DNA from: Bilabrum cf. latius
Lineage: Eukaryota
Assembly (NCBI GenBank): GCA_965178125.1
Contig: OZ237768.1
Location: 682,001 to 746,000 of the forward strand
Direction: 5' to 3'
DNA: 64,000 nt
The position numbers were made by a program, and so were the translations under genes. How positions within the stretch are numbered: the stretch's first letter is position 1; each line of letters opens with the position of its first letter. Below the pieces are notes generated by a model. It was not told the DNA's origin, ran no database searches, and saw only the letters and a program-made list of their open reading frames with translations. Of this stretch, positions 1 to 64,000 are shown one piece after another.

Positions 1-1449
1 GTCATCATCGCCCTCTCCATCCACGTACTAGACTTCGTCCTCGTCCTCCTCCAGCAATGAGGCAGCAATGGCCTGCTGCAGAGCTGCGATGGAACAATAG
101 GGAAGTTGGAAGTAGAGAGAAACAGGGTGGAAACGGGAACCGGCTAGACCTGGACGAGAGCCACAAAGCGGCCACCTACCCACCCACTGACCCTCCCTCG
201 AAGAGCAGAGCAGAGCAGAGCAGAGCAGGAAACCGTTCCAATTGCCACGCAAACAAGTCACTATACCAAGGCACGATAAAGACCAACTCGTCACGATCTA
301 CTCACCATCATCGTCGTACAGCATCTCTTCCGCGCCGTCCCCGCCGCCGTCATTCTCCGCCGACTCCCCACTCGCGCCCCGGTCCCCCCCCGCGTCACCA
401 GCAGCCCCCGGGGCCGGGGCAGCGGCAGGCGCAGAGGACCCCGGGGCAGAGCTGCCAGCGGGAGCCTAGGAAGACGAGGAAGAAGAAGCCGAGGAGGAGG
501 ACGGTCCGGAGGTGGAGGTGGACGCAGATGCCCCTGCCCCCGCTGCTGCACCCAGGCCTGTGGCCGCCGCCGCACGAGGGCCAGACGCAGCGCCCGCCCG
601 ACCGGCCCCGGCGCCCATGCCAGCTCCCGCCCCCGCCCCCGCTGCGCCGCCACCCATCATGCCAAGCACCGCGGGATTGATGCCCAGGCGAGCCAGCTGC
701 TCCATGCTCACACCGCCGGCGCCACCCATGCCCCCGCCAGCGCCGCCCATGAGCGCCGCCAGCCCGCCCATCCCACCCATGCCTCCCATCCCTGGCATGC
801 CCCGGGGGGCCGCCATGCCCTCGGGCATGCGGCCGTCCATGAGGCGCTGGAACTGGCGCGCGCTCTCGCGTTCCTGGTCCAGTCGCTCGGGAGTGGACGG
901 GCCCTGCAGCCAGAAATAGAACTGGCGGTCGCCTTGCGTGGTCTGCACGGTAAGCTCGCATACGCGAGCAGTCGGATCGGGGCAGCGGACGCGACGGAGC
1001 TTGCCGGCGCCCGGCAGGCACTCGAGGTCGATGTCCGGCCGGGACTGCCCTTTCGGCCGCCAGCGCACGCGCGGCGCACTTCCAGGGGACTCGAGAACGA
1101 TCTACAGCTCTCCTCGGGCTTTCTACGGGATTAGGCGCACCGCGCGTCGCCCTTCAGACATGGGGGCGCTTCGAAGCGAAACACGTCCGGCTTGCAGAAC
1201 TACGGCTGCGCCTCGCGACTGCGAATGGGTTCAACGAGCTTAGTATGGCAGAACAACATGATGCCAGGTTATATCAGGCTGATAATCGCTCGGACTATCG
1301 CTCGAATATCTGCGCTAGCACGGCCACGTCGCTCAAAGCTCGCAACCGAGCAAGCACACTCAATTCGAAAGTCCGTATAAACGCATCGCTATTCAACTCA
1401 CCCTTCCCCGCTCTTCCTATTGCGCCTACTGAAACAGATTTGTTGCCAT
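1..1449 (-). CDS. ADRM1: Proteasome ubiquitin receptor Rpn13/ADRM1-like (Pru domain, C-terminal UIM-like motif); 3' end runs off the window
   Basis: ATG at 1449. Predicted introns 1401-1219 and 305-84, both GTGAG...CGCAG. With TAG=Q the spliced product reads MATNLFQQAQQEERGRSRGAAVVLQAGRVSL...RLIPQKARGELQIV...RVRWRPK...ARVCEL...RQFYFWLQ, matching the Pru AGKM...KG...FFWMQ pattern, then DDDALQQAIAASLLE. Six in-frame TAGs. Confidence 0.75.
202..227 (+). repeat. (AGAGC)n microsatellite inside the predicted ADRM1 intron
   Basis: About five tandem AGAGC units seen directly. Confidence 0.8.
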
Positions 1450-1602
1450 CCTTGCAGTATTTCCAAACTATCCTTGTTGGGCGGGCGTTCCTGGTCGATC
1501 TCGCGATGTGGTATTTGATCGGTTTGTAGCGTAACAAAATCACCACACCCCCTCGGCGTGTCTGTAGCTATTTTCTCAGCCTTTTAGTCGTATTCCAGGC
1601 AG

Positions 1603-3006
1603 ATGAATAGAGCTAGACGTTCATTATCAGTGTTTGGAAGCAGGTGTCGCGATATTGCCTCGCAGGTTGAGGCTACCGTGCCGCTGCAAGCCATCGCGTA
1701 TGTGCCTTGCAGGCAGATATGCCAGTGCACACGAACACAGCGGTCAACCAGCGCAATGCATCCCAGCCGCGAAAGCAACATGTCACGGAAGTTGCATTCT
1801 TCCGTGCGGGCTCGTTAGGTAGGTTCGGGGGGACCAGGCAGTGGCGATGATGACGCCGGCAAGGCCCTGTTCGGCCCTGGAGCAGCTGGAGCCGGATCTG
1901 ATGGAATCTCAGACGCAGAATCGGATGATGAGCTAAAGATGTTGCAGGAAGAAGCCCGCTGGGCCCAAGAAAGGGAGCAGATGGCCTCTGGCACGGGGGA
2001 GTGGGCCGATTTGGCTGGTGCGGGGAGGCAAGGCCTGGACATCGGAGAAGGGGACGCGCAGGGGGAGTAGCAGGATGCCCACGGCTTTGCAAGTGGGGAC
2101 GATGAAAACGAGGAGGAGAAGGAAGAGAGGCGGCTGGAGGCGCAGGCCCGTCGCCCCGTGCCCCTCTCGGAGGAAGAGGCGGCCAGGCTGACCAAGGCGG
2201 AGCTCAAGCAGCTGCGGATGCAGGAGGCAGAGGCGGACAGGCACCGCAGGCCCGAGGACTTGGAGGCCGAGTTGAGGACTCTGCCCCAGCAGCAGGCCGC
2301 CACGTGGCACTCCCGCATGCAGTCCTTCGTGAGCGCCGTGTACGATGACCCTGACGCGCACAGGGAGGCTGAGGGGGGGCCCGGTTCTGGGAGCGGGGGG
2401 GGAGGAGGGGGGGGCCTGGAGGGAGACGCCGAGCTGCAGACCACGCCCAAGTATTCCGGTTTGGGCGCCCTCTCCATGAGCGATCCGATCCGGTTCGAGC
2501 GGCTGGCTCTGGCACAGAGGCTCATGGACCCGGACGATGGGGTCGCGCCGTACTGCGTGTTCTGCGTGCACGGGACCGATATGCTGCGGGCGGACAACAC
2601 GCGGCTGCTCTCTCAGTTCGTGGGCGGGGATGGAGCGTTGTTCCCTAGGAGGATGACGAACGTGTGCGCCAAGCACCAGCGCAAGCTAGCTAGGACCCTC
2701 AAGAAGTCGAGGTGGATGGGCCTGGTGCCTCTCAGGAGCAAGCTGCACCCGGCACTGCGGTCGGTGGGCATGGGCGAGGACGATTTCGGGAGGGGGGCGG
2801 CGGGTGTGGGTGATTTGCCGCCGGTTGGGGGGGCCTCTGCCGCCGTGGAGGACATGGGGCTAGGGGCGCAGGGGGGGGGCATGCCCGGGGGGGGGGGGGG
2901 CGGAGGGGCAGGGGGGGCCAGGGGCAGATCTGGACGCGGCGATGGCGGAGCTCTCGCTGGCGATCGGCGGGGAGGGGGGTGCGCCGGGGCGGGCTTGATC
3001 CTCTGA
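1603..3006 (+). CDS. MRPS18: Mitochondrial ribosomal protein bS18m with long N-terminal extension
   Basis: S18 motif NTRLLSQFVGGDGALFPRRMTNVCAKHQRKLARTLKKSRWMGLVP. The frame stays open from ATG 1603 (Arg/Ser-rich, presequence-like N-terminus) through TAGs at 1816 and 2068 to TGA 3004-3006. The poly-G run near 2887-2900 makes the C-terminal frame uncertain. Confidence 0.8.
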
Positions 3007-3052
3007 TCCGATCTGATCCGATCTGATCCGATCTGATCCGATCTGATCCGAT
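3002..3052 (+). repeat. (TCTGATCCGA)5 decamer tandem repeat starting at the MRPS18 stop codon
   Basis: Five perfect 10-bp units seen directly. Confidence 0.9.
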
Positions 3053-5855: not shown

Positions 5856-5863
5856 AGGCTGAA

Positions 5864-8800
5864 TTAAAAAAGTTTACCTGTCAATGCAAGAACTAGGAAT
5901 AAACCTATCACTACGAAGTTGAGAGCTGGAACAGCAGGTCCAATAAAAGCTGTGTAACGTTGTAAAATTACATAGATCAAAAGACCCATCACCAGGAAAC
6001 CAACATGAGCCAAAGGAAACTCATTGCTTCCTAGTAATTCACGTTCCTTCTTTTTAATAGGGCTATCTATTGTAGACAAATACATCTTGTCTCTAGTGCG
6101 AATTCTCCGTCTAAGCATCATTGAAAGTCGAGGGTTGTCAGTTTGGAGCCTTCGCATTCGAGATATCTCCGATTTAGGCCACCTTTCAAGCTGCATCAAC
6201 TTGTGGCTTGCCGCTTCTACAATACTTTTCGACGATATCGCATCACCGAATTCGAGAAGAAGAGTGTGCGATCCACTAGAAACTTGTAGCTACTGCTCTA
6301 TTAGAGTCTTCAAATCAGTGACTTGATACTTGTCTGCAAGCATGTAGTCCTACATGCATTCTCTCTAACTGAAAACAAGACGAACTCCACTGTACATCGA
6401 AGCTACAACTCGAAAGAAAGAGGCTGCGTCGTCTGGAATGTCAATTTCAATCAACTCGCCTGGATGCAATGGATCATTATCGATCCGACTACCGTCAGCC
6501 GTTGAAAGCCGTAGCGACTTGCCATCATCATCTTTATCAAACTCGGCGAAAAGATGATTAAAGTATTCTGAGCATGACGATAGTACTGCTCTGTGGCATA
6601 GCACTTGTGCTGACCCTACGTTAAAGATAACGTCCGGACATCCAAAGCCAAGTGCACTGTCATTCAGCATTATACCAGGAGCAGAGGCAGCGCGCTTAAA
6701 GCATGAAATTAAAATTGATGAATCGGCTACTTCGAGTCTAGCATCGTTTCCTGTCTTATTTGCCCTCGCAGCAGCGATCATTGGGGCTTCTAGTGCTAGT
6801 GTGCACACTGCCGCCAGGTTCAATAATTCAAGTTCCCTAGCGAGCTCACGCAACTCAAACACAGTATCCGCATTAACTTCATTTCGACGTGAATCAGATC
6901 CTGGGCGAATCGATGCGGCTATCAGGGATGTGGAGAGCGTACCACAATACATGAATTCCAAACACATTGAAGCAACAACTGGACTGATGCCACGCCAGCG
7001 AAGAGTAGGCCTGGATATGTCAGACGAATCACTAAGCTGCACCAGAATGCGCTGCTGCAAAACCGATGACCGTACTGCCAGAATACCGACGTGGGCTCCA
7101 AATCTCACTCCTGCATCAGTTTCAATGACGCAGTTCGGGCGCACATTGACAGAGAAGTCCATATGCCACAATGGGGCCATTCGCAATGGTAGCCCAAATA
7201 GCCCTGAGGGTGAACTATGCTGCAAAAAATCAAGCCAGCCAGCGAACGGCTTCATGATGGGTGCACCTGGGCTTGTAATCGATGGGCGGTGCTATCCTGC
7301 GGGAGGGAGTAGGCGGGATTTATGGGCACCTTCCCGGCTGCCGGCTTGAACAACCACTGTGTGCCAGCCTCCACAGCATAGCGCCGTGGAGATGTGGCTG
7401 CAAGCTGCTGTTGCACCATCAACAGCACCCTAAAGGCCACGAGCGGTCTGACTGGAAAAGCCGGTCTCCGCTCCTTCTTGAATAGCTTTCGGATGAAGCT
7501 CTACTAGATGTGATTGTGGCTAGCGGCCTAGGGCGTTTCCGAGCACCACGGGCAGCGCGGAAGATAAGTCTTGCGAACTGTTGGTTCCGGCCGTCAGAGT
7601 GCCGAGGCGGCCCCTGCCTTCTTCGTCGCCATCGATTTCGTCATCATCATCGATGTCGCCGTCGTCGTCATTGTCGTCGTCTTCATCACCACCATGGATA
7701 CCTTCTTCAGAAGCGGCACCTGCTAGCTCTGCGCCATCTCCTGCTTCGGCTTCCGCGGTCCCATCCCCCCTGGTTGGATCCCTCCGGCCCAGGACGGCCC
7801 CCTGGTCGGTGCCGAACACGAAGACCTGGCCATCAGCCGTCAACACCGCGCTGTGCAGGGCACCTCCAGAGGCCTGCACAGCCACTAGGCCAGAGGGCTC
7901 TAGCATGCAGCTCGCAAACCCACCATCCTCGCCGTCGGCACCAGCCCCAGCTCGGGCGACTCCGTCCCCGTCCAGCCGTGGCCGCTGCCGCAGGGTAGCT
8001 CCAGCGAGCGATTGTACCAGCCGCGGCCGCAGCCACGGCTGCCGCAGTAAGCGAAGCCGGCGCGCTCGACCGGCACCGGCACCGCCCGCGCTAGCCTCAT
8101 CGTCCTCAGAATCTGAGTCGGGCTTGGAGCCAGCTCCAGCGCTACCGGTGGGATCATCGGCGTGGCTGGGGGGTACCTCACCGGGCCGGGCGTCAGACAG
8201 CCCGCTCGCTGCCTCCACCTCGGCTGCCCTGCGGGCCGCCACTCGCGCCGCTGCTCGCGACAAGTCTTCGTCCCCATGCCCCAGCATGGCACCGCCCCCG
8301 CCGCCCCACGTCCACAGACCGCCTCTGTCGTCGATGGCCAGACTGTGAGCCAGCCCGCAGGCACCGCGCACGAATCGCACGCGGACTCTGCTGCGGCCAC
8401 CTGCTGTCGATGCAGCTCCTGAGCCCGATGAACCAGGTCTTGTCCCGGACACGGCGCGATACGCCCGCACTCGCCGTGGCCTGTCGCTGTCAGCAGTGCC
8501 ACCAGTGCCCAGCTGCCCTGAGCCGCCCTTGCCCCAGGTCCACAGTCTGCCTGCTCTGTCCACGCACAGCGCGTGGCACTCACCGCAGGCGACGTGCCTC
8601 ACCAACGGCCTCCCCCCATAACCCTGACTCCCATCCCCCTCCCCACCCCCGTTGGGCTCCTCCTCCCCGCTGGCCCGCCCCAGCACCCACACCCTCGAAG
8701 GCAGCAGGCTCACCCGGGACAGCTGCGAGCCGCGCCCGCCCCCTGTGCGCACCACCGGTGGCGGCCCCCTGCCCAGCCTCCCGCTCGCCCTTTTCCCCCA

Positions 8801-11749
8801 AGAGAACACGCTGCCACCCTCGGTAAGCGCCAGACTGAACCCTCCCCCCGCCGCCACCATGGCAGGACCGCCCTCCCCCTTCGAGTACATCTCGCGCGTC
8901 CACACGAGAGAGGGCCCCCACTCGCTGCGGCCCTGCGGTCTACCCACGGCGGTGCCAGACCCGCACGCATAGATCCACCTCGTCTAGTCCTCGGAGCCCC
9001 CTTGCCTGCTACTCGACTCCACGCCGCCAGATGGCAGGTCCCCGCCGCTTCCCCCGTCCATTTCTTCATTAGCCCCGCCCTCCCCATCCCTGCTTGCCAG
9101 CTGCTTCTCCTTCTGACCCGGGTCAGGGCCCTTCACCAGAAACAGGGTGTGGCACCCGAGCACATCTGACCCACACGCTGCCATCTCCACCGCCCCCCGC
9201 CGCCCAAGGTCCTCCACGAGGGTTGGCCTCAGCCGCGTATCAGAGTCGCCCAGCCCCAGGGCACCGTCCGCCCCTGAGCCCCAGGTAAAAGCCATACCCT
9301 CCTCCGTCACGGCGGCACAGTGGTACCACGAGCAAGACACCTGGCGCACCCTCACGAGCCCCAGCTCCATCCCCAGCGGCAGCAGACAGGGCCAGGCCCG
9401 GTCCCGCCCATCCCCCAGCCCCAGCACCCCATGGTCACCCCTGCCCCACGCTATGGTGCGCGTGTGTGTGGGCAGCACGTCCCTCGGCAGGTGTCCCTCA
9501 TCCACGGGGGTCCAGGCCTTCACGGCGCGGGCTGCTCTCGCCTCTGCTAGCAGCTGCTGCTGCCCCTATCCCAGCCCATCAGCTCCAGCCCCCTGTTCCT
9601 TGGGCCCCTCTGTCCCCAGGGCACGCTGCGTTTCCGCCACTGGATCATGGGGCCAGCACCGAAACAGGGGCGCAATGCTTGGGGGCAGGCCCACCTTGCG
9701 CTCCTCGTGGCTTTCGGCGTTTGATGAGCTGCGGCTGGTCCCATCCTGGGTATCGCCTGCGGCCAGCCCCGACTGGGTCGCATGCAGCAGCAGCTCGCGC
9801 GCCACACACTACACCTACACTGAGGGTGCACCCGCGCCCACTAGCTCCATGCTGTCCGTGTCCGTGTCCTTGCCCTTGTCCTTGTCCTTGTCTCCCTTCG
9901 AGTCAGCTTCGTCACCAGGACCAGGTGCATGCGCACGCACGAAGAACCGCTGCCTAAGGGTGGCACGCACCATCGCCCACGGCTGCACCTGCTCATGGCT
10001 CAGGTCCTCCGGATGCTCCCCGTCCGCCTTGCTCTCCTCTTGACCCTCAGCCCCCGCCAAGGATTTGGGCCCTGCCCGCTGCCTCTCAACAGCCGCTGCA
10101 TCCTCCTGCCCCAGCACTGCGAACCAAAGCGGCGTGTCCGCAAGGACCTCGCTGCCCCACGCGCCCTCCCACACGCCCGCCCTGGCGCGCACGCACACAG
10201 GCTCCTCTGCACTTGACGATTCCCACGCCGCACGCGCCCGCGCGGTGGCACCTGCCCCGTGGCCCCGTGCCCTCACGGTGGCTTCGATCGGGAGGGGCCC
10301 CGCCCCGCACAGCACCGGGGAACAGACCCCTGGGACTGCAAGCAGCCGCTCGCACACTCGCTGCAGCACTGGCAGCACGCACCCTCGCTGGGCCATAGCA
10401 AGAATGACAGCTGCCGCGCGGGCAGATGCAGGCAGCACCCTCAGCCCGCCAGGTCCTGCCCCAGTCCCATCCCCAGCGCCACTCCTCGCCGAGCCCCCGC
10501 CCCTAAGCATTGGGTGCTCCCACGCGGGCTGCTCTCCACCCCTTGCCAGTCCTCTGTCGCTCTGCTCCAGCTCAGCAGCCAACCGACGCACCAGCAACCT
10601 GCTTCCCGGTGGAATCTCCACAGACCCTCCCTACTCCTGGCCCCCCTGTCCCTCTCCCTCTCCCGCTTGGGAAGCCTTGTGTCGCAGCTTATCACGCTCT
10701 GCCGTCTTCGACACATGCAGACGCTGCAGCACCCGCCGCCCGGAAACTGCCCACACGTCCCCACGGGCAACCATGCACGCATCAGCTGCAGCTGACCCGA
10801 GGCCTCGGTCTCCTGCCGCCCCCTTCTCACCCCACCCGGCTCCAATCACGCCGCAAGACTATTCCAACTCACGGCGGCCCACCTGCACAGAATCCCCTAC
10901 AGCTAGACCGGCAAGGCCTTGTCGTGCGTTCTCACTGCCCCCGCCGTCCACTGCATCCAAGGCAAGCGCACACTCGGCACCCACAAGCCCCTGGCCCCCC
11001 ACCCCCTTCTGGTCGCCGCCCAATGCGGCACCCGCTGCTGCAGCACCCCAAATCCCCTCCACCAGCGCTTTCTGCACGCCCGCTCTGCCCCTCGCGCCCG
11101 CGATGCTGGCCTCCAGAGCCCTGATACTCTCCCGGCTGGAGGCAAGGTCACGCTGGGCAGGCACGAGCGGCCCACCCGGCACCTCCTCCTCCTGCTCCTC
11201 CATGCCAGCCCCGCTGGATGGGGCATTTGGACGGGCAACACCGACTGTGCTGCCACCGTGGAGGATGGTAGCGAGAACGCGCTGTCTGGACGCGATTTCA
11301 AGCGCTGACCGCGGGCCTGGCGGGGGCAGGTACTCCGGCTCGAGATCGTAGTCAAGGCCGTCTGGGTCGTAGCCGTCCGGGTCGACAGACCCGTCCAGCG
11401 ACCCTTCAATTGACCCCTACCAGGAAAACGCCATGGCTGAGCCTGACTGAGCGGCCGATGCCATCTCCCGGCGGAGACGCTCCGTACCGTAATCTGGCGC
11501 TGCTGGTTTGGGCTTCTGGATGGTCTGGTCGTCCTCTTCGTCAGAAAACACCTCTGCGAATTCATCTTCATCCTGCTACCACTAGTTTCCAGCTTCACCA
11601 CTAGATATTGCAGTTTCTGCCTCGCTCATTCCGGCACCAGCTTCGTGCTCAGTGTCTGTTGTTGGAGCGGGCCCCTCATTCACCTGCCTTGCTCCATGGG
11701 CACTCTTCGCCTCAGCGAAATCAGTACTTGATGTACCACTAGCATTCAT
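5864..11749 (-). CDS. Large RCC1-repeat plus tandem BTB/POZ protein with C-terminal hydrophobic segments, about 1960 aa
   Basis: Nine ORF-track fragments share one frame and are joined by about 14 TAGs. RCC1 repeats (WGRGDHGVLGLG, VSCSWYHCAAVTEEGMAFTWGSG, VACGECHALCV). BTB motifs (FGAHVGILAVRS...LEFMYCG; DVIFNVGSAQVLCHRAVLSSCSEYF...LADKYQV). Ends TAA 5864-5866. Alternative start at 11806. Confidence 0.75.
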
Positions 11750-11910: not shown

Positions 11911-14679
11911 ATGGCTTCTGTTTGCGTAGTTTAGCCTACGTCTGTGTCTGATATTCAACGTGCTTTGCGGATCGCGTGCTGCACAGGTACGAAGCTGCAC
12001 CTTGAGGGATCGCTGTCATTCGACGCCCACGTTCTTGGACGTAGTGACTTGAGTGACAGCTCGAAATATGTGATTTTGTCTGAAGCTGAGTATATCCAGA
12101 AGTATGATACAACAGCTGGCTGTTTGGGTGCCAATGGAGATGGACAGCTTGCAAGCATTTCCTTTGCTGGTAGTTCGAACGGGCGACACGCTGACGGCGC
12201 GGGCATCCACCACACGAACAGCGCCAGCAGCCGTAATGAATCAGCGCTTGTCGGTTCTGCAGATTCGCCTTGCCTCGTTCTCAGCATGGGTGGCATGGAC
12301 CGCGTCCTGGCCTTGGACACGGAGCGTAGACTGGTCAAGGTGCAGGCGGGCATCTCGCTCGAGGCGCTGAGGTCCTAGCTTTCTGCACATGGTTTATGTC
12401 TGCCAGCAATTGGTGTGACAGAGGGGTCTCATACGAGGGATGGTCTGCAGCTGTGGCAGGCGCTGGAGCGGGGCCACTGCGGTGTGGGGCCCCGGCAGCG
12501 GATGCTCGGGGGCAGGGTGCGGGAGGCGCAGATCGTCCGTGGGAATGGAGAAAGCGTCCTCGCTTCCAGTAAGCACTTGAGAGACGTGTTTCGAGCCAGT
12601 CTCGCGGGCAGCTGCGGGCCTCCTTTGGTGGTGCCAGCGGGGTACTTGCTCGAGTGCTCGCCCCAGTTCGCTCTGTGCCCCGTGGTGGGGCCATGTCCGC
12701 AGGAGACAGGCATCGGCCTCATACGCAGGGCCGCTGTAGAGTCTACCCAGCGTTCCACCTCAAGTAGGGATGGTTTCAATGTCCCCGAGCCCACTGCCCC
12801 GCTGCATCGTCAGGGCGGCATGCTTCAGGTGCTGTGGACCCCCGACTTGGTGGACGCAGCGGGCGAGGGCCGCACCTGGGCTCGTCTGCTGCTGGCCCGC
12901 ACCATCGGCGAGCTGGCAGGCTCACCTAAGACTGGACCAGCGGGGACTGAGTCGGCCTCTGTTGGTCCCTCCGGGTCCACCCGGAGGGGGGCTGGGGCGC
13001 TGCGGCCCCTGGGCCCGGGGAGCGTTGCAGCCAGCGAGGCCACGTCGCTGAGTCCAGGGACCGTGCGGACCTCCCCGGGGGGCAGATTTGTCGTGCCGCC
13101 GAGTCTGACAGGCAGAGCCAAGACACGGCCAGGGGCAGGAACAGGGACAGGGCAGGTCTCGAATGAACACGGGGGGGCGGCAAGCGATGGAGCATCGGAT
13201 GGCTCCGTGCCTGTCCGTGTCGCGCAGCAAGTCCCCGCGGGCAGTATTCCTGGCCAGGGACCGCTGCTAGAGGCGTGCTGCTGGGCCGCGCAAGATGCGG
13301 TGCATGCAGGTGTATCCGCTGCTTGCTGTGATGTGCCTGGCTGCGTGTCCAACGCGCACAGAGCAGCGGCCGGTCTTGCTCTCGTGCTGGGCGTCACTGA
13401 GGTTGTGCTGCTGCTCTACCTGCTGAGCAGCGCCGCAGGCTTTAGCTGGCTGGCTGGTCCTCTGGCGCAGCTGTGGGTGTGGCTGTCTCCTGTTGCGGCT
13501 GCAGAATCGGCGGGTAGGCGCGGGGTATGCAGCGCTTGGGGGCTGCCCCAGTGGTCGTCCTCCCAGGCCAGGGAACAACGGACCCGCGCCCGACTACTCG
13601 CGGCCCTGGCATCTCCTAGTCCCTAGCCAGACACCCCCAGCGCGGCCTCCTCCCTCCCCCCTGAGTGCTTCTAGACCGCTTCGCGGGCGCTGGGGCTGGA
13701 TCCATTGGCGATGCCAAGCCCCTCGCTTGCAGGCGGGGCCACTGGATGGCTGCTGGACGTTGGGAGGACTACGCACCTGGGCTGGGCGGTACCCCGTGCA
13801 GAAGCCGACCAGGCTCTGGAGGCGGTTCGGCGAGCCATGGCGCGTTGGGCGGCAGGCGGTGCCCTGTCTGGATCCAGCGCGCTGCCTGCCCCAGCGAGGA
13901 AGAGACAAGGCCGGTGGGGCGGGGTGTGGCCCGGGTCTGCAGGGTGGGCTGGCATCCAGAGGCAGGGGCAGAGGCAGGGGCAGGATTCTGGGGGCAGCAG
14001 CCACGACGGTGCTTCGGACGAGTTGGGCGGGGTGTCTCGTGGGAGCATCCCTGGTGCGTTCGGGCCCGGGGTAGCCATGCCCGCCCTGGGCGTCGATCTC
14101 GTGAAAGGGGACCACTGCTGGCTGTCTCCCGCGGCTGGGGCGGACTCCATGGTGCTGCGGCTGCGGTGGGTGCCGCTGCAGCCGTGGCTATTGGCCCTCC
14201 CCCTGGTGGGCGCCGTGCTTCGGGGGGCGTGCGCCAGGCATGCGTCTCTAGTGGCATCGCTCGGGGCCGCGCTGGTGAGCGACCAAGTGGCTGCCCGGCC
14301 TCTGGGCGCCGCTGCCCACCGGCTGATGGTCCCTCCGCTGCTGATGCGAAGACTCTTTCGCAGGTGGGCGGCTGTGTTGGACCTGCGAGATGACGAGTGC
14401 GACCCTCAGCACGCGCTCGTCAGCCGGGACTGGGACGGGTGGCTCGCTGCCTCGGAGGCGCCGGTTGCAACCGAGGACGGGGAGAGCTTGGGGATGGCAG
14501 GGGCGGCTGCCATTGGTGGCTTGCTGGAAAACTTGGGCGGCGGAGGCCCCGGGGTCCAGCAGGGTGAGGGGGGGGGCGGGCTTCCTAAGGCGGGGCCGAC
14601 TGCCAGCGGGGAGGACCACCAGGACTCCGGGCTCAGAGCACGACAAGTCACCCCTAGTGCGGGTAAGACAAGTGACTAA
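11911..14679 (+). CDS. FAD-binding oxidoreductase, divergent aldonolactone oxidase (GULO/ALO)-like
   Basis: MASVCVV[TAG]PTSVSDIQRALRIA...LSMGGMDRVLALDTERRLVKVQAGISLEALRS[TAG]LSAHGLCLP resembles the FAD_binding_4 N-terminus. C-terminal MRRLFRRWAAVLDLRDDECDPQHAL resembles the ALO tail. One frame, four TAGs, ends TAA. Confidence 0.65.
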
Positions 14680-14860
14680 TCGTTGATTGGATTGAGGCCT
14701 GATTGATACCCAGATGCTTGTGAATCCGCGCAGAATGATGGATTTTCTTGAAGTGCACGTTATGAAGATGAATGCAGGCACCGGGGGGCAAGTCTTTGAC
14801 GACGACCACGAATCCTGGGCTCGTTGGAGCCTTGTCTTTCAATCACCACCTCATTTTGGC

Positions 14861-17197: not shown

Positions 17198-17340
17198 CGA
17201 TGGAAGCCTCGCCTTGGTCTAGCATACAAGTTGCTAGCGGGAAAGTCCAGCCGCTGTATATGACCAAGGTGATGCATACCCCTATACAATGTACCGTGCA
17301 CGGACGGCATCGTAAAGAGTCTAGGCCGTCAAAGCTGCGA

Positions 17341-18657: not shown

Positions 18658-18764
18658 GCTACGGTGTGTTGCAGTTGGTCATCATGTCGGGGGAATGGCG
18701 GCGCTGATCACACCTGCCTACTAGTACTGCAACTGTGGGTTTGCTCGGCCCATTACGGCGCACC

Positions 18765-21184: not shown

Positions 21185-21367
21185 GCGAAGCGGCCGAGCA
21201 GAAAGCACTACCGTACTAGCATGCCAATTTGACGGGGTTTGCACAGGAACGTGCACCTTTGTTCGCCAAGCCGTGGTGTCGGGCAACATGCAAGTGAGCA
21301 TTGGCACAATTAGTCCCTCCGCCAATGCTGTCAATAACCTCCTCGAATATGTATCGCAAGCACCGTA

Positions 21368-22774: not shown

Positions 22775-23076
22775 GCTCCAATCTAATCAGCAACAGGAGT
22801 ACGAAGTCCAACACAGTCGAGAAACTATTGCACCTAATACGATTCCTTTCTAGCTGGGAGGCACGACAGTTGCTTGGGATTGTAAACGAGCAGCTCATGT
22901 CCTGAATATACCAGAGCGTACTGAAACAGCGCGCTACTGGTTGTCGCCTGCGGTCTTTTGTCTGGTCTGGCTGGACCGGATAGCAGCAGAGCATTCAGAA
23001 CAGAGTGCCCAATTGCAGCGGTAATGTTTGACAGACAAATGACTCCTAGACAATTCATGGGATGCTCGTTTCAATA

Positions 23077-43026: not shown

Positions 43027-43637
43027 GGCTGTAACCAAGTGCGGGCTGTCCTTAAGGCCTGCTGAGTGTGTCGCCTCGTGGCAGAGCGCCAGCAGCGTCG
43101 AGCCGTTCAACAAGTTGCGACCAACTGCGACCTTCTCTCGCACTGCCAAGTCTAGGCCCACAAGGCCGCAGACGGCTGTAGGCACTCTCTTTTTGAAGTC
43201 ATCGCGACTTTGTAAGGTAATTGTACCATATATTCGGTGAGGACTCCCATGATCTGTCACAAAGCATCCCATTGAGTGCTCGCCTGTCACGAACGATAAC
43301 TCTCCAAAACGCTTCATTTTGATGTTCTTGCTGCCAGGCGTGTAGATCTTCATCTATAACAAATACTTTGGTTCTTTCAATTAAGTCTTTTCGTGTTGGA
43401 TGGCTGCACTTTGGCAGATTTTCCTCGCAATTGCCGGCCGTACCGCGTCTCAACATAGAAACGTTCGCCGTGCGTTGTCGCCGTAATCGGTTGACCATAA
43501 TTCGTATGACTCTCGAATTTGATTTTTCGTTTGACCGCCCACAGATTGGACTGGTGCTGTAGGATTAAAAGGCAAGTATTGGGAGCCTAAGTGCATTCCG
43601 CTAATCTGCCGATCGCTGGCAGAGGCAGGGGTGCGTC

Positions 43638-52925: not shown

Positions 52926-55034
52926 TCAACCGTCCACCCAAATTGCTCCTGCGCTGGCATCTACTGGCGATTCTGGCCTAGGGCGTTGGCTGCCACGCGG
53001 GTGCACTTTCGCGCTTTTCGCACGTGCATCTACGGGGATTCCCAATCGAGCGTCCACCACCCCCCTCCAGTCCTGCAATTCTTGCCCTGCAGCCCCAGCC
53101 AACTGTGATGGTGGTGATGCTGCAGTGGCGGCTGACCGAGACTGCGATGCATCACCCCCGTCCTACTTCCGAGAGGCACTTCCCGGTGCCCCAGAGCGGT
53201 AGTGGTTCCGTGTTAGCTCACGTACCACCCCCACAGCTCCCGGTGCCCCAGCACCCACCATCAGCCGCCGCACCTCTCTTGACCCCCCTCCCCCTGTCTG
53301 TCCCTTGCCAAGCGCCTCCAGCACAGCCCGCACCCCCACCTCACCGCGGAGCGTAATCCGTCCTGCTGTGCCCGCAGAGCCCCGCACCGCCCCAGCAGGC
53401 CCAGCCCCGAGAGCATCGGCCCAGCAGCCCAGGGACCACTCCCGCGCGATGTGCTCGCCTCCCCCCTCCGCACCTATGTGCGCCCCGTCCGACCCCAGCC
53501 CATCTGCATGCCCCGCGACGGCCTCATAGTCACCCTCTGCCCCCAGCAGGCTCTCCATGGCCATCTGCACGCCTGCCAGCGCGTCCCCCCACAGATCTTC
53601 GTAGTGGTGCAGGTGCGCCCGAACTCGCAGCAACTGCCCAGCCTGTCTTGCCAGCGCCCCCAAACAAGGACCCATCCCGGCGTTGTTCCACAGAGCCACC
53701 GTCGATGGGCCCCCACTAGCCCCTGGCACAGAGCACAGCGCAGTCTTGACGGCCTTGCCCCCGCTGCAGTACCACGGCATGCGCACGTGGCCGGCCGCGC
53801 GCCAGTCCTGCACGCATCTTTGCAGATCCCCAGAGGATACGCTGAACGATGGCACGGGTACGGACCGCCGTGACCTGCTGCCAGCAGCCAGCCCCCGGCC
53901 TCCCGCCGCTGCCGCTGCCTCTGGCGCGCTCCTGGCCAGCAGGGCGAGGGCGAGGGTCCCACGGGCTCGGGGGTCCGTCTCAATCCCGTGCTGGGAGGGG
54001 TGCGCCGCCGCCCGCAACATCTCAGCGGCCGCACGAGGCATCGACCTGTCCCTGACCCGGGGCCGGGCGCCGGCCCCGGCCCCGGCCCCGGCCCCAGCTG
54101 CCTACACCTACTTGCCCCGCTGCCCGACGTCCCCCACGAACGGACTGACCGAGCAGGACGCGAAGGGGAGAGAGGGTAGTGGGACCAGGTTGGTCGGTAA
54201 CTCGCCCAGGTCCAGGTGCAGGGGGCCTCCAAACCGTGAGCCAGCCGCGATGTCCACCAGGGCCTGGGCTGCCACCCGGTTGGCGGTCTCGAAGGCAGTC
54301 AGAGCTTTTGACTTGCCGGCAGGGCGGGGCTCCTCCGCTGCAGAGAGGTCCGTGCCGCCCGCAATCGTGTTCATGGCAGCATTTGTGAACGGAATCACGA
54401 GTGACGCGTGCTGCTGCAGCTGCTCCAAGGCCAGCACGGCATTGTATGGGGCGGTGACCACATCGCTGTCATGTGCGCAGCTCGCCCGACTCGGTGGAGC
54501 AAAACTGTCCGGGGCTACAACAGCAGCTATCCTGTCTATATCGGAAAATGCGTCGGCGCACTGCGCCAGCAAGCGAGTTCCCAGTCCAGAACCAGTCCCG
54601 CCGCTCAGCGAATGCAAGAAAAGCAGGTTGCCCGGACTGTCACACGACTCCAGGGATCGCCTGACTTGGCCTTCTAAACTTGAGCCATGAACAGACCAGT
54701 GCTCGAAGTGGCCATGAGCCCAGTTGTTCCCGGATCCGGGCGAGTCCTTAACCAAAGAGCAATGCTAAAACAAAGGAGCGTGCTTGCCTTTCAAAAGTTG
54801 GGCAAGCACTCCTTCCTCCATGTCTACCAAAACAGCCCTTGCGCGTAAGTGCCGGAGAGATAGTCCGCCTGCATTTGTATCAGGTGCGTGCGACTCGATC
54901 TCGAAGAAGGGAGAGAGGTGCTACAAGCTTGCTGATGTTGCGGCGCTTCGCTCAGCCAAGAGCTCGTTCCAAAACTGCCAGCCAATTTGATTGCCGCACT
55001 GCCCTACCTGCACGACAACTGTTTCTCTAGGCAT
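52926..55034 (-). CDS. TUBE1: Epsilon-tubulin, divergent, with long C-terminal extension
   Basis: [34 protein letters not shown] (epsilon-type), [41 protein letters not shown]. Five in-frame TAGs (54921, 54765, 54108, 54102, 53163). Ends TGA. Confidence 0.82.
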
Positions 55035-55350: not shown

Positions 55351-58056
55351 TCAGCCGCACCCGGAACATAGGCCTGGCACGCACCCGGCGCAAGTCAGCG
55401 GGTGCAGCCCGCTGGCCTTCGCCACGGCCACTCCGATGGCTGTGGTGCCCTCTCCCAGCACAAACCCGGTTGCAACCAGCAGGCCCTGGATGCCCTCCAG
55501 CCCGCCGGTCGGGCTGTGTCCTGCAGACTCAGGACAGCCACAGGGGGCAGCACAAGGGGCCAGCCATCCCCTCCTCCACGCCTCCATGGCCAGTGCGCCC
55601 AGCACGCGCGGCAGCACAAACGAGGGCGATATGTACATGCCCACGGCCACTGCCATGAGGGACGGACGCACAGACACCAGCCACAGGGGACATCGGCACC
55701 GTCCAGGGGCACCCAACGAGCTAGTCGCGCCTGCTGCTCCTCCCAGCTCCACCTCGGCCGGCATCAGGGGGCTGGAGGCATCCTCGGCTGTGCCTCGCCT
55801 GCCTCGCCTACCTCGCCCCTCCACACCAGCAGCTGCTAGGCCATGTGCCCCTGACTCCTCCCCCGAGTCATCCAATTCGTCTCCTGGGGTCACCTGCGCC
55901 CTATGCTCAGCACTTGCCCTGCCAATCCCGCTGTCGCCCGAATCAGCAGCCTCGGTGTCGCATGCCAGCATCTGCACGAGCGCGATCACCATGGACAGCC
56001 CAGCGCCGATGCCCGCAAACAGAGGCGCATTGGCGGGCAGCGGCTCTCCTCCTGCCAGTCGAGCCATGTCCAACCACACCTAGGCAGTTGGGACCTGCAG
56101 GGTGGGGCCCCCCAGCGTATAGGCCGCCGTAAACAGCTGGTAAGCCCCCACAGTGGCGACGACTCCCACTAGAGAGCCCACTAGCTGGGCCCACAGCTGG
56201 GAAATGGGGAATGCGCCCAGCAGGTAGCCTGTCTTGAGGTCCTGCATGAGGTCCCCGGCCTGCTGTGCGCCTGCCTCGGCCACAGCCCCCGCCAGCAGAT
56301 TGGACACGATCCGGCCCGGGGCCATGCACGCGAATGCAGCCTGCGCGATCTTACCCACCCCCGAGACCGGGTTGAGGTCAGTTTCTCCCAGGGCTCGCAC
56401 TGCGATGACTGCCACCACGACGCACAGCAGCAGGGCCACAAGCGGCTCCCAGACAGGCACCTTGAAGACGAGAGGGACCACCAGGGCGCACAGGGCAGAG
56501 GACAGGAGCAGCCCAGGGACCCACAGGCACATGGGGATGTCGCCTCGAGATGATGATGACGTGCTGCCCAGCGTGCCACCCGCTGCGCTGGCAGTTTCTT
56601 GTTTGGCCCTGCAGCACACTATGCCATACCGCAGCACGGTGCTTCCCAGCGTCACCACGCTCTCGCCCAGCATAATGCCCAGAGAAACCCACACCACCCA
56701 TCCCTTGGCCCCATCCGTCCAGCTTGATACAGGTCCCGGCGCCCACCCCATCCGCATGGCCAATGGAGCCAGGATGCCCCATGCTAGGAGGGCGCCCACA
56801 CCCATGCTGAGGGCAGGCCGCAGACCCATTATCATGCCCTGCCCCACGTAGGAGAGCGAAGGGGACACGTACCAGCCCAGCTGAGTGGCCTAAAGCGGAG
56901 CCCCCAGCCAGTGCAGCACGGGCATTGCCCCTGCCACTGGGACAAGTGCGCCCAGCACAGTCACCCCGGACGCAGCGGCGCAGGCCTTGCACATGGGGCC
57001 CAGTGGGGGAACTGCTGATTCGCCTGATTCGCGAGAGTGCGAGCCCTGCGGATCTTGCCGAGGGCCTGCATCTATCTCCATCTGGGCCTGATGATGGGGG
57101 TCATTGGGTGCTCTAGCAGCAGCAATAGTCTTTCCCGGGGCTGCTGCAGGAAGCACGTGCGCATCCGGTGCACCGGAGGGCCGAGCGTCCGCTCCCGAGT
57201 CCGGTATGGCAGGAACTAGGCAGGAATGCGTCCCCTCCGCCCGTGCTAGTGCCCCTGTCTCCCCGTGTAGTGCCCCGATTACAACAGCCGTGGCTGTGCC
57301 GGACGGAAATTTCAGTTTCTGCACCTCAATGGCATCCCTGCGAAGAGGGACTGCCAAGAATACCCCAAAGAAGGCCAGGGCAGCGCACCATCCAAGCTGC
57401 TGGGCCCATGATAGAGTCACGCCCTCCTCCGATGAACTATCCTATTCATAATGCACATGCGCGGCCATTGCCACAGTCGCATTCAATCGGCCTGGCCCAT
57501 CCACGGCACAAGTTGACTGCAATGCTACTACCCCCGCACGAGTGTCTTCAATTTCTAGTTCATTGTGCCCCAGCAGAGTCAGAGCTGGAATAATCCCTAC
57601 AAACCCTCCGGCAAGCGGCATTGTGCCGGCTGCGACCGCAGTTGTTTGCAGGGCAACGTTCTCCAAAGGCGTGAACCCACTCGCCCAAGACATAGCAGCG
57701 ACGCAGCAACACTTTGCAAACACGCTCTACTTTGGTGATTTCGCGTGGGGCCTTGATTTGTCTCTTGAGCTCGCCAATAACGACGAGTCCTCTTCATCGA
57801 CCTACTACTCTGTTTTATTACTTTCTGGTCGTGCCGAAATGGTGTGTGACTCGTTTGAACTTGGAGAGACTTTGCAAATTGCATCAACAGAACGAAGCAC
57901 TCCGAAACCGAGAACAGCTGCTTGAACAGAGGCCATGGTGATCCAACCAGTCTGCAGCCCAAAATACATGTTGCTACAACACAAAATTACCCCAATTATC
58001 GATCCAACAAATAATGCCCGACATGATGCCTGTGGTTCGCTATCTGCAGACATCAT
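55351..58056 (-). CDS. OPT-family (YSL-like) oligopeptide/metal-chelate transporter
   Basis: SNMYFGLQTGWITM, FTPLENVALQT, LKFPSGTATA, SPSLSYVGQGMIMG, GETDLNPVSGVGK, AGDLMQDLKTG, VPTA[TAG]VWLDMARL. Five ORF fragments share one frame and are joined by six TAGs. Ends TGA. Confidence 0.92.
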
Positions 58057-58205: not shown

Positions 58206-59414
58206 ATGAGTATTCACGGATAGGTCGTCGTTGGACCCCCGGGGTCGGGCAAGACAACGCACTGTAGAGCAATGAAATCCATCTTGGCTGCTTTCGGACG
58301 AAGGCCAATTCTTGTCAATCTTGACCCTGCAAACGATGCTAGCATCCGAGCTCACGTAGTGGCAAGTGCGACGTAGGGGGGTGATTATCCTGCATCAGAG
58401 TCAGACAAGCAGCTGTTTGATATCGACGTGCGGGAACTCGTTGCATTGGAGGATGTAATGGAGGCAACAGGGCTTGGGCCGAATGGGGGCCTTGTTTATT
58501 GTCTCGATCTAGTGCTCAAAAACGTTGGGTGGCTATCTAAGCAGCTTGCGGCTGCCATCGAAGACCGAGAAACAGAGCTGGGTGAGCTGCAGCCTTACCT
58601 GGTGTTTGATTGCCCGGGGCAGGTTGAGGTGTACACGCACGGGACTCAGATTAAGAATGTATTAGATCATTTGCAGCGAGAGAGTGATCTGCGCCTGTGT
58701 GGCGTGCACTTGGTGGATGCGTCGCATTGCTCTGATGCCTCCAAATTCCTGTCTTGCACCATGCTGTCGCTGAGCGCCATGACGCGCATGGAGATGCCAT
58801 GGGTGAACGTCCTCTCCAAAATCGACACATTTTCGGCGTTTGGAGCGCCCCCGCTGGGCCTGGACGCGTACACAGATGGCTTAGACCTTGAGAGCGTGCT
58901 GGACTCGGCCGCTGGCCCAGGGATAGGCGGTGCGCCGGGACTTTCTCTTGCTGGTGATGGCGGTGACGGTGACGATGATCGTGATGGTGCAGACAAAGTG
59001 CAGTGTGGCGAAGCAGGTAGCTTGATCTCCCACGATGCGCCGGCTGATGGTGGTTCTAGCTCTACAGGCGAAGCGCCCCCGGCACACTCAGGAACCAGTG
59101 GTGCTAGCTCTCCAGTAGCGCCACGCAGCCGGGCCTTCTTCAAGCGATGGCGCAGCCTGCACAGGGCCATGGTAGGCGTCATGGACAGTTATTCATTGGT
59201 AGGCTTCCTGCCCAGCACGGTCAAGGATGCCAGAGCCACCACCCGGCTGCTGCGGCGGTGCGACAAAGCCACCGGGTATGCCTTCGGAGCGCTGCACGCC
59301 ACCACCGAGGCATCCGTGGCGGGCATGATCGACCGTGCTGACGTTGACAGCGACACTACTGCAAGAAGAGAGGCCGAGGAGGCCGCCATGGAGGCTCTCC
59401 TTGGTGTCATGTGA
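58206..59414 (+). CDS. GPN2: GPN-loop GTPase 2
   Basis: MSIHG[TAG][53 protein letters not shown]. The P-loop connects to the rest only if the TAGs at 58221 and 58374 are sense. Ends TGA. Confidence 0.95.
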
Positions 59415-62052: not shown

Positions 62053-62117
62053 GAGCAGCCGAACACGGTTGTCGCGAAAACACGATCATTTCCGGTATTT
62101 CATGAACAAAACTCAAC

Positions 62118-62843
62118 TCAACTTATGCCGTACTTTCCACCGAGGTCCTCTTTCGTCGCATCTGTACATTTCTTGGAGCCGAGGACCTCATACACTGCTC
62201 CTCTCACAGGTCCGCGCTTGAGCTTCGTGTCAGTCCCGTAAATGCCAATGTACTGCACGTGGCAGCTCTCATCCTCCCCAAACGCTTTCCTAAAAAACAG
62301 CGTTAGATGGTACACGCTGTGGAATTTGCCAGGGCGGGTACTGTACCGCATGTCGCCCTTGCAGTCCTTAGCTAGGTCCAGGTCCTAATCTGCTTTGATG
62401 TCTTCAGCCAGCCCGAAATCCATGTCCTCCCTATTCACGAATACCCCGAGGTCACTTGGATGATTCTCACTGTCTGGTCCCCCGATGCTGATCGCATGAA
62501 TTCTCACAGCAGTACGAAACGGTATGTGCACGATCATTTCTGGATCACAGTCGTCGCTTTCAAGCACAGGTTCTGGGTTCATTCGCATGTCATACGGTTT
62601 AAACGGTGCCTTCGGGTCGCTGCCTGCTGCCTCATTCATACATCGAACATTATCAAGGTCAATGCTAGAGAGCAGAGATGAGTACGATGTGTCTGCGGTC
62701 TCCATTTCATCTTCTTCGCTTGAGCCCACTTCATCTGCTCGCCTCGGGGCGCCCCGAAGCCCGGTTCGCATGGTAAACCCCAACAATGTGCTACCACCTG
62801 GTCTCGAACCACCACCACTACTGTCTCCTCCGGCGGATGCCAT
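62118..62843 (-). CDS. PITHD1: PITH domain protein (PITHD1-like)
   Basis: SLLSSIDLDNVRCMNE, LESDDCDPEMIVHIPF, VFVNREDMDF, AD[TAG]DLDL...YSTRPGKFHSVYHLTLFF, YIGIYG, VYE. Ends TGA. Confidence 0.88.
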
Positions 62844-62969
62844 GTTGCAGTCAAGACCGCCTGATGTGGCCACACTGCAACTGTTCGTGTTGGCAGCGGA
62901 ACTGGAACCGGAGCCGTGCGCGGCGCCAGTCTCGCCCCACCGACTGCTTTCCTAGCAGTGCCAGGATTC

Positions 62970-64000
62970 ATGTAGTCCCACTTTGCTCTCGTATCTTTAT
63001 AGCTTGCATTTTCATTGGCCGATACTTTGCCGTGAGGCCTATCATGCCCTTTTTCCGGTCTGACTCGATCGTTTTCTTGGTTATTTGCTTGTGTATCGTC
63101 GTTTGCCCCTGGGTTTGTTTGTTTTTGCAGTGATTCCATACCATTTCCGACCAAAGAATAGAACTATGATTCTTGGTTTGATGAGCAAACGAGCCAAGCT
63201 GACGCCGACTTGAAGCAGATGGCGTACAATTCCCGCTTTCCGGGATCTGCCTATGACCTGGTGCCGGCTGCTTCGAACGTCATAACTCAAGCACACATCA
63301 GTGTGTTTGACCGGAGAGTATATATCGGACCAAGCGCAAACGACCACACTTCGAGATGCGACTAGCCTGCGAAGAATTGGTTCAGTTCACAAAACGTCCT
63401 GGCTAGCACTGGGAGTAGCGTAGAATCCGTAGTGTTATGGGGGGCAGGTCCGCGGCTGGGTCTTGATGCTCGGACGCAATGGGGTTGGGTCATGCGAGGC
63501 CCGGGAGGCAATGCATCGGTCGTGCAGCTGATCGCGGACCTGCATGAAAACCAGCCTGGCGTGCAGGTCCTGCTGGGCTACGTGGTGAGCTGGGCCCACT
63601 GTCCGCTCGTATCTTCCCAACCGCCTTTCGATGGCATGGCTTCATCGCTTTATCGTGCTCTTACCCCTTATCGACCGCAGCCCTGGGACAATGCCACGTT
63701 CGGCACGCAGACGCCGGCAACGCCAGATGAAGGTAGGACCAGCAGTAGCAAGGGGCTGGCAGCCTCTCTGTGCGGGGCCCTGCTTGACCTATTGGCCGAG
63801 TGGGGGGCGGATGGGGTGTATGGCCTGGGCGTGGGGACCTTCGACTCGTCCTGCCGAGAGCGGAACGAGACGTTGTCCGGTATTCGTATCGGAGTGGACG
63901 CTTACGTGCTGCAAGGCGATGCACCCATGCAGGTGGACGGAGAGGGCTTGGCCCCTCTCTCGTATCAGTCCACATCTGCACTAGCCTGGGTAGACGGGGA
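62970..64000 (+). CDS. Putative secreted protein, 5' part only (runs off the window)
   Basis: M[TAG]SHFALVSL[TAG]LAFSLA is signal-peptide-like. Predicted introns 63032-63130 and 63585-63680 (GTGAG...GCAG) keep one frame open to the window end. No family recognised. Confidence 0.5.

Follow-up and report, generated by a model that had tools for sequence, protein, structure and literature searches.

Does the triplet TAG end genes in this genome, or does it specify an amino acid within them? The question is raised by a 64-kb stretch of DNA (64,000 nucleotides; contig OZ237768.1 of assembly GCA_965178125.1, forward-strand positions 682,001 to 746,000), referred to here in its full length as the window, in which the frames of recognizable genes run through TAG again and again. 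An earlier note, made from the letters of the window, had proposed that nuclear UAG is read as Gln and that UAA and UGA are kept as stops. That core claim is borne out by contigs assembled from spliced mRNA, by alignment columns, by summed Pfam scores, and by the finding of TAA in terminal positions only. We consider it likely that UAG is an ordinary Gln codon in the nucleus of this organism and that UAA and UGA are its terminators, a set of assignments that we take to be NCBI translation table 15. All coordinates given below are window positions.

In-frame TAG codons in genes, transcripts, and relatives

The window has a GC content of 61%, with T making up 19% of its bases, and its genes are eukaryotic and tightly packed. 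Of the three stop triplets, TGA is the commonest (770 occurrences), followed by TAG (460), and TAA is the rarest (248). With the standard stops, the longest frame spans 829 amino acids (aa); with TAA and TGA as the only stops, the longest frames reach 2138, 1702, 1545, and 1184 aa. Reading TAA as sense did not lengthen the long frames. Reading TGA as sense also lengthened frames in this GC-rich DNA, which speaks against taking frame length as proof; since length alone is thus uninformative, we relied on homology instead.

We built 25 gene models, 20 of which have a Pfam match. Counted from the first ATG onward, they comprise 16,473 codons and include 80 TAG, 488 CAG, and 115 CAA codons, the UAG share of Gln codons being ~12%; the figure of 80 is an upper bound, as the first ATG of some models may fall in the 5′ untranslated region. 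At least one TAG occurs in 22 of the 25 models, and an AIF-like gene makes a 23rd, its TAG lying inside the Rieske domain, upstream of the first ATG. These figures are close to the ~90 TAGs in ~25 of 27 genes counted earlier. No in-frame TAA or TGA was found inside the 25 models, as the earlier note had also stated. Twenty of the TAGs lie inside the best-stretch envelopes of 12 Pfam families, and the same envelopes contain no TAA or TGA. Profiles were covered nearly end to end in a single frame across TAGs: Prenyltrans from 6 to 303 of 304 positions (three TAGs), WDR55 from 1 to 295 of 296 (two TAGs), and, with one TAG each, Pkinase from 1 to 263 of 263, ADK from 1 to 149 of 151, and PITH from 5 to 171 of 176. 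The two sites that had been singled out at the start, the TAG at 28629 in the adenylate kinase LID and that at 22094 in a kinase domain, are both where they had been placed. Along the models, 18 of the 80 TAGs fall in the first tenth, an excess that is a further reason to treat 80 as a ceiling, and 16 in the last three tenths.

When words were sampled from an 8-kb test stretch, seven public runs proved to contain half of them or more. We compared four runs from three studies with window positions 14600 to 31000; X5, X6, and X7 come from two further studies. Four introns with GT..AG ends are absent from contigs of X5, X6, and X7 (19119 to 19207, 24891 to 25198, 28116 to 28229, and, on the minus strand, 29891 to 29988). 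Because these introns are skipped, the contigs must derive from spliced mRNA; the RNA nature of the three runs is taken from the intron-skipping contigs and not from the run records. No differing letters were found in positions 14600 to 31000 across the assembled contigs of the four runs. Thirteen TAGs in seven genes (those for CRNKL1, WDR55, NAR1, the kinase, RABGGTB, MFS_5, and ADK) were covered with no difference, and two of the TAG-bearing records are themselves spliced. As assemblies rather than raw reads, the contigs would not reveal rare variants. At the contig level, editing, splicing-out, and base-call error are excluded as the source of the 13 covered TAGs. The earlier note had allowed that its claim would fall if the TAGs were edited, spliced out, or miscalled; in the assembled contigs, all 13 were retained letter for letter.

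Runs X5 to X7, which show no difference from the window over positions 14600 to 31000, bear two other organism labels and come from studies other than those of the DNA-type runs. The organism may live beside other cultured organisms or be filed under several names. One contig each in X5 and X7, of much greater depth (133 to 139), matches the window as far as 16280 to 16294 with a one-base insertion and continues as unrelated sequence; it probably represents another transcript, an abundant one, with a short segment in common.

Relatives carrying the same trait were found in public collections. Protein fragments of close relatives (P0001, P0121, P0122, P0244, P0247, and P0327) are cut where a standard-code gene caller would stop, and four of them (P0001, P0121, P0244, and P0247) begin or end beside TAG positions. 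P0001 is 98% identical to the window protein in conserved columns and has Q and S at two of the window's TAGs. A scan of metagenome contigs with the RABGGTB alignment yielded 80 loci, among which only one, L001, had more than one in-frame TAG in its match. L001 is a contig of 4267 bp with 51% GC, is 77 to 83% identical to the window, and carries MFS_5, the cAMP-dependent protein kinase (PKA) regulatory subunit, and RABGGTB in the same order as window positions 23077 to 27978. Although the two differ by 10 points in GC, the arrangement of these genes is thus kept across the clade. Six in-frame TAGs of L001 are alignable, and the window has CAA, CAA, CAG, GCA, GCA, and TCA at these positions. 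At one of the six, 117 of 119 homologues have Q, and in the PKA regulatory subunit, a TAG of L001 is aligned with a CAG of the window. The four alignable TAGs of the window, for their part, face TCC, CAT, TCT, and CAA in L001. Because syntenic L001 carries in-frame TAGs of its own, three of the six at CAA or CAG codons of the window, the comparison indicates that the trait is common to a clade of at least two organisms and is not confined to one genome.

The amino acid specified by UAG

Alignment columns at TAG codons point to Gln. The most informative site is in the GPN2 gene, just before the P-loop (58221 to 58223, plus strand), where the column holds Q in 117 of 120 homologues, with H in 1 and a gap in 2. 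In RABGGTB, the second TAG of WVC#LQ#SDG (# marks TAG; 24154 to 24156, minus strand) falls where the 120 homologues have Q 80, R 20, N 7, L 6, K 6, and D 1, and here P0001 has Q and L001 has CAA. For the OPT transporter TAG in GAPL#ATQLGW (56890 to 56892, minus strand), P0244 (89% identical) has Q and P0327 (71%) has A. Among 150 OPT representatives, one TAG column was mixed (Y 19, A 16, H 15, Q 14), and the remaining TAG columns lay in inserts. Of 12 TAG columns assessed, 7 with less than 50% occupancy were set aside and 5 were scored, giving log2-odds of +5.56 for Q, −2.91 for H, −7.7 for N, −11.6 for K, −13.9 for S, −14.3 for L, −16.2 for Y, and −17.0 for E. The mean share of Q among homologues was ~0.36 at these five columns, compared with 0.29 to 0.49 at the window's own CAG and CAA columns.

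We also rescored 11 further sites in six Pfam families, substituting for TAG each of 10 of the 20 residues in turn (Q, E, K, Y, L, S, W, H, R, and A). Summed scores were highest for Q (707.0 bits), followed by K (703.2), H (701.9), E (701.7), and Y (700.8) and then by S (699.1), R (697.3), A (697.3), L (693.6), and W (687.6). By family, Q ranked first in Tubulin, PITH (by 2.2 bits), and Rpn13, second in WDR55, third in BTB, and fourth in ADK_lid; most of the scored TAG columns are variable and the margins are small. Circumstantially, three consecutive TAGs (46359 to 46367, plus strand) directly follow CAG CAG CAG AAG CAG CAG GAG in a tract (46338 to 46367) and fit a poly-Gln run. On these alignments and profile scores, Gln is the best reading of UAG. 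Two further approaches were dropped as residue tests: the composition of residues neighboring TAG, which was too weak to identify a residue, and a PDB alignment of the tubulin, as the beta-tubulins were too distant to inform its TAG columns. A search with the 1961-aa RCC1-BTB protein for relatives' fragments across its 15 TAGs returned just three matches.

The decoding of UAG as Gln would call for a tRNA-Gln whose anticodon, CUA, differs by a single base from that of the CAG-reading tRNA (CUG), and for an eRF1 that has lost or weakened its recognition of UAG and so would no longer compete there. TAG and CAG would then interchange as synonymous C/T changes. The conversion of tRNA-Gln(CUG) to CUA by a single anticodon change is a route described for other stop-to-Gln lineages in the consulted portion of PMC5304391.

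Stop usage was examined in 23 models, 16 of which end in TGA and 7 in TAA; since frames were read through TAG, ends of these two kinds follow by construction. The earlier tally was 17 TGA and 8 TAA among 25 ends. All seven TAAs lie at frame ends, and beyond six of them, the next in-frame TGA follows after 4 to 143 codons. If TAA were Gln and used at the CAA:CAG ratio, ~19 internal TAAs would be expected, and none was observed. With all seven TAAs terminal and none of ~19 internal, the code is not one in which both UAA and UAG (UAR) specify Gln. In-frame TAA at Gln sites, which the earlier note had named as a finding that would speak for the ordinary UAR code, was likewise absent from the 16,473 codons of this window. 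Stops are followed directly by T in 13 of the 23 models, including 6 of the 7 with TAA ends, compared with 19% T in the window; in-frame TAGs are followed by T in 10 of 80 cases, matching the 13.8% for all codons. The T after the stop may be a termination context signal.

Several observations weigh against the assignment of UAG to Gln. No credible tRNA was found in the 64-kb window by ARAGORN or Rfam, and hence no tRNA(CUA), and eRF1 lies outside the window. The restriction of gene ends to TAA and TGA is partly circular, and one gene has a TAG two codons before its TGA (62044). A number of TAGs are off Gln positions. At the first TAG of WVC#LQ#SDG in RABGGTB (24163 to 24165, minus strand), the 120 homologues have S 55, G 40, A 13, K 5, and Q 0, P0001 has S, and L001 has TCT. 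The TAG in GGNIG#DPHLLY of the same gene (24265 to 24267, minus strand) counts in part against Gln as well: its column holds H 113, Q 5, N 1, and a gap in 1 of 120, Q being second best, and L001 has CAT. Pfam favors Tyr for WDR55 and for ADK_lid (Y 63.7, K 62.4, E 62.3, and Q 61.9, at a variable column) and, marginally, Glu or Lys for BTB. Q was observed 26 times among residues neighboring TAG versus 17 expected, a weak signal in which it resembles Y, H, and N. The 13 cross-species TAG pairs comprise 6 Gln, 4 Ser, 2 Ala, and 1 His. Among 36 ordinary Gln codons in the window, 21 are matched by Gln in L001. Some excess of Ser would be expected if TAG is Gln, a Ser codon (TCG) being one base from TAG. 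Finally, all of the evidence comes from one 64-kb window and one 4.3-kb relative.

Two side observations concern these sites and searches. The TAG at 24265 to 24267 (minus strand), if Gln, would be a His-to-Gln replacement at a well-conserved RABGGTB site, reached from CAT or CAC by one step to CAG and by a second from CAG to TAG. The sole ARAGORN call in the window, a tRNA-Ser(GCU) at 56980 to 57070 (plus strand), lies inside the OPT coding region on the opposite strand and is probably false, as Rfam reported no tRNA there at the gathering threshold or at E ≤ 1.

These points bear on other ways of explaining the in-frame TAGs. Context-dependent stop/sense codes have been described for Condylostoma and, for UAA, Blastocrithidia, and UAG could similarly serve as Gln inside genes and as a stop at the ends of some of them. 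Frames defined by TAA and TGA would read through a true TAG stop, and the TAG just upstream of a TGA noted above is of the kind that would be overlooked; moreover, the bias toward T at the +4 position, seen at stops and not at internal TAGs, is a context that could in principle separate the two uses, although a difference of this kind is no demonstration of termination at TAG. Nevertheless, we consider such a dual role unlikely, given that conserved domain sequence continues beyond internal TAGs in at least 12 families, that TAGs are not concentrated toward the 3′ ends of the models, and that the MFS_5 and PKA regulatory subunit orthologues of the window and L001 end at matching C termini with TGA. 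An assignment of UAG to His, Lys, Ser, Tyr, Glu, or Leu is less probable still and would strike us as surprising. It could draw on the His and Ser/Gly columns of RABGGTB, on Ser at 4 of the 13 relatives' positions, and on the two Pfam families in which Tyr scores best; these are outweighed by the presence of TAG at three strongly conserved Gln columns (117 of 118, 117 of 119, and 80 of 120), by log-odds that place H 8.5, K 17, S 19, L 20, Y 22, and E 23 bits below Q, and by summed Pfam scores in which each of these candidates falls 3.8 to 13.4 bits short. The Ser codons of relatives would be expected with TAG as Gln in any case, the change from TAG to TCG being a single one. Leu and Ser, the assignments of UAG in the rhizarian exLh and in Scotinosphaera, were examined in particular, and neither the log-odds nor the Pfam sums (Leu 13.4 and Ser 7.9 bits below Gln) agree with them.

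A code in which UAA and UAG both specify Gln and UGA is the sole stop (NCBI table 6) has been reported for many ciliates, hexamitins, some ulvophytes, and Amoeboaphelidium protococcarum, and in a GC-rich genome TAA might merely be rare. TAA is indeed the rarest of the three triplets, and the TGAs that often follow soon after a terminal TAA would permit short extensions gene by gene. The lack of any internal TAA in the 25 models, where ~19 were expected, and the failure of TAA-as-sense to extend the long frames leave this code with very little credibility. We found no support for the idea that the TAGs are untranslated, whether as sequencing or assembly errors, edited sites, parts of introns, or marks of pseudogenes, and we give it next to no weight: contigs of four runs, drawn from three studies and including spliced transcripts, agree in every letter, only four introns are seen, the in-frame triplet is only ever TAG and never TGA or TAA, even though TGA is the commonest of the three, and a relative has TAGs elsewhere in the same genes. 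UAG as an ordinary Gln codon, with UAA and UGA as terminators, is thus the reading that we carry forward.

Gene content of the window

Products named by Pfam are mitoribosomal S18, an RCC1-BTB protein, CRNKL1, WDR55, NAR1, a STE20-like kinase, Rab geranylgeranyltransferase beta, a PKA regulatory subunit, an MFS_5 transporter, adenylate kinase, an IQ-repeat protein, an acetyl-CoA transporter, a mitochondrial carrier, an AIF-like Rieske oxidoreductase, a divergent tubulin, an OPT transporter, GPN2, a PITH protein, an Rpn13-like protein, a FAD-binding oxidase, and a DnaJ protein.

Seven of the genes in the stretch compared with public runs carry the TAGs covered there. The gene for the Crooked-neck/CRNKL1 splicing factor (14696 to 17197, plus strand; Pfam HAT repeats) has three TAGs near its N terminus, ends in TGA, and is covered by contig X5 record 3. 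The WDR55 gene (17341 to 18678, minus strand; Pfam WDR55, 9.6e-88) ends in TAA and has two TAGs, both covered by contig X6 record 9. The second exon of the NAR1 (Fe-hydrogenase-like) gene (19208 to 21184, plus strand; Pfam Fe_hyd_lg_C) follows the intron at 19119 to 19207, and its TAGs at 19298 and 20954 are unchanged in spliced X5 and X6 contigs. The TAG in the STE20-like protein kinase domain (22094 to 22096, minus strand), spanned by the Pkinase profile over its full 263 positions, is matched by contig X5 record 5 with no difference. The RABGGTB gene (23077 to 24573, minus strand; Pfam Prenyltrans, 1.5e-91; 120 homologues) has three TAGs and ends in TGA. The MFS_5 transporter gene (26317 to 27978, minus strand; Pfam MFS_5, 7.3e-102), syntenic with L001, has two TAGs and ends in TGA TAA. 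The adenylate kinase gene (27963 to 28868, plus strand; Pfam ADK and ADK_lid) has its intron at 28116 to 28229, with the splice joint present in X6 and X7, and the TAG in its LID (28629 to 28631, plus strand) is matched without difference by spliced RNA contig X6 record 14. In the same region, the gene for the cAMP-kinase regulatory subunit (24748 to 26033, plus strand; Pfam cNMP_binding) has no TAG, and the splice joint of its intron at 24891 to 25198 is present in X5, X6, and X7.

Outside that region, the richest in TAGs is the RCC1-repeat and BTB gene (5864 to 11749, minus strand; Pfam RCC1, WD40_RLD, and BTB), with 15 in frame from the first ATG and a TAA end. An Rpn13/ADRM1-like gene cut by the window edge (1 to 1230, minus strand; Pfam Rpn13_ADRM1_Pru) has five TAGs, two of them in the Pru domain. 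A 1702-aa frame to which Pfam assigned no family (43605 to 48713, plus strand) has seven and ends in TAA. The divergent tubulin gene (52926 to 55034, minus strand; Pfam Tubulin, with PDB matches) has five, two in the GTPase domain, and the OPT oligopeptide transporter gene (55351 to 58056, minus strand; Pfam OPT, 4.3e-91) has six. The GPN2 GTPase gene (58206 to 59414, plus strand; Pfam ATP_bind_1) has two TAGs and ends in TGA, and the PITH-domain gene (62118 to 62996, minus strand; Pfam PITH) has one inside the domain, at 62385 to 62387. The acetyl-CoA transporter gene (39516 to 41672, minus strand), which has no TAG and matches positions 2 to 546 of 546 of Pfam Acatn, serves as a control showing that normal frames exist.

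The IQ-motif repeat gene (31638 to 36275, minus strand; Pfam IQ) has 10 TAGs in its N-terminal half. Its C-terminal half (31638 to 34000) consists of ~20 near-identical units of 49 residues that each contain a calmodulin-binding IQ motif (GGEERAAVRIQAMARGRQARSRVRDMRGAHGDGLRGDGGEGVD); the units differ little among copies and are free of TAG. The DnaJ-domain frame (29960 to 30406, minus strand) enters the intron at 29891 to 29988 that is removed in RNA contigs, and a further exon lies downstream at 29470 to 29890, so that this gene model is incomplete.

Placement of the organism and relation to known codes

We sought a placement of the organism with a tree of RABGGTB (IQ-TREE, LG+C20, SH-aLRT), whose labeled rows are without alveolates or metamonads. 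The window sequence, P0001, and L001 were united at a support of 100 and were sister (90) to two unlabeled sequences; all of these fell within a clade (95) that also contains Chlorarachnion and seven ochrophyte stramenopiles and excludes the fungi, an animal, plants, and other rows. This one gene tree suggests that the organism belongs on the stramenopile/rhizarian side, away from fungi. In the GPN2 tree under LG+C20, the clade formed an isolated branch with a length of 1.62 changes per column, and given that branch, the grouping of GPN2 with fungi in a FastTree analysis (support, 61) was dropped as long-branch noise. The GPN2 of the clade (window 58206 to 59414, P0121, and P0122) has a long acidic and Gly-rich insert and is far more divergent than RABGGTB. 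The nearest named OPT matches were spread over fungi, Amoebozoa, a green alga, and a rhizarian, and a search of ESM Atlas with a TAG-free protein gave a family name only, without useful taxa. Phyllopharyngean ciliates have gene-sized chromosomes, and the source contig of the window is at least 212 kb long. The suggestion made at the outset that this is neither a ciliate nor a fornicate is plausible in view of the 61% GC, TGA as the commonest stop, the length of the contig, and the RABGGTB tree, tempered by the fact that the tree holds no labeled alveolate or metamonad.

The code itself is known. UAG as Gln with UAA and UGA as stops is reported for Iotanema spirale, Protocruzia tuzeti, and two phyllopharyngean lineages, and in other cases of a change in UAG alone, the codon has become Leu (the rhizarian exLh and some ciliates) or Ser (Scotinosphaera), according to the consulted portions of PMC11687900 and PMC5304391; about seven lineages in which UAG and UAA part ways are named in the part of PMC11687900 used here. 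The earlier note was right that UAG-only reassignment is rare and that Iotanema and some phyllopharyngeans are examples, and its list was incomplete, since the same part of PMC11687900 adds Protocruzia tuzeti (Gln), Scotinosphaera (Ser), and exLh (Leu).

Iotanema spirale (Metamonada, Fornicata) has the same three assignments as the window, with UAG at ~8% of Gln codons versus ~12% here and a proposed CUG-to-CUA tRNA route, as described in the consulted portion of PMC5304391. It is an anaerobic metamonad, whereas the window organism fell with stramenopiles and a rhizarian in the RABGGTB tree, which has no labeled metamonad. Its nearest sampled relative lacks in-frame UAG as far as that portion of PMC5304391 reports, whereas here the trait is found in at least two organisms that are 77 to 83% identical. 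In the phyllopharyngean ciliates and Protocruzia tuzeti, the move of UAG to Gln with UAA kept as a stop arose repeatedly and recently, and these ciliates have GC contents of 27.4 to 53.6%, with UAA as the stop in most cases and UGA in the fewest (PMC11687900, in the part consulted), compared with 61% GC and TGA at 16 of 23 ends in the window. In exLh and Scotinosphaera, which are nonciliates, UAG alone is reassigned, as in the window, and exLh belongs to the supergroup suggested by the RABGGTB tree, as far as the sources consulted in part describe them; they differ from the window organism in the residue, Leu being 20 and Ser 19 bits below Gln in the window columns. Amoeboaphelidium protococcarum is a nonciliate, nonalgal protist from algal cultures in which stop codons have also moved to Gln; unlike in the window, both TAG and TAA are said to have done so (PMC6299283 and PMC5304391, in the portions consulted). 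Its genome has a GC content of 40.5% (PMC10608142, Table 1) versus 61% in the window, and no Amoeboaphelidium proteins from NCBI were among the 120 matches listed for RABGGTB or for GPN2. An aphelid origin is unlikely given the ~40% GC of Amoeboaphelidium and a RABGGTB tree in which the window stands apart from fungi.

What appears to be new is the lineage. We found no report of nuclear UAG reassignment in a stramenopile or in a GC-rich nonciliate protist in the literature, of which our coverage was incomplete. This agrees with the earlier proposal of a possibly unreported origin, and absence from incompletely covered literature does not prove it. We put forward tentatively, as a possibility falling a little short of probable, that this is an independent and unreported origin of UAG-only reassignment to Gln in a GC-rich, nonciliate lineage that falls toward stramenopiles and Rhizaria, with the trait common to two or more, and probably four, divergent organisms of one clade. 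The four would probably be the window organism, the 98%-identical form, an ~70%-identical form, and the metagenome relative with 51% GC.

Changes to the nuclear code are rare, and the separation of UAG from UAA is rarer still. Until the code is set correctly, standard-code gene callers will cut proteins at every TAG, and the annotation and phylogenomics of this lineage will be wrong. The GC-rich setting bears on the debate between codon capture and an ambiguous intermediate: because the genome is GC rich and UAA, not UAG, is the rarest triplet, simple loss of the codon under AT pressure offers no explanation. If the origin is truly one beyond ciliates and metamonads, it would provide a natural test of how recognition of UAG is lost from eRF1 while that of UAA is retained, in an organism with useful traits for the purpose: a compact, intron-poor genome, public RNA data in three studies, and relatives at graded distances that carry the trait.

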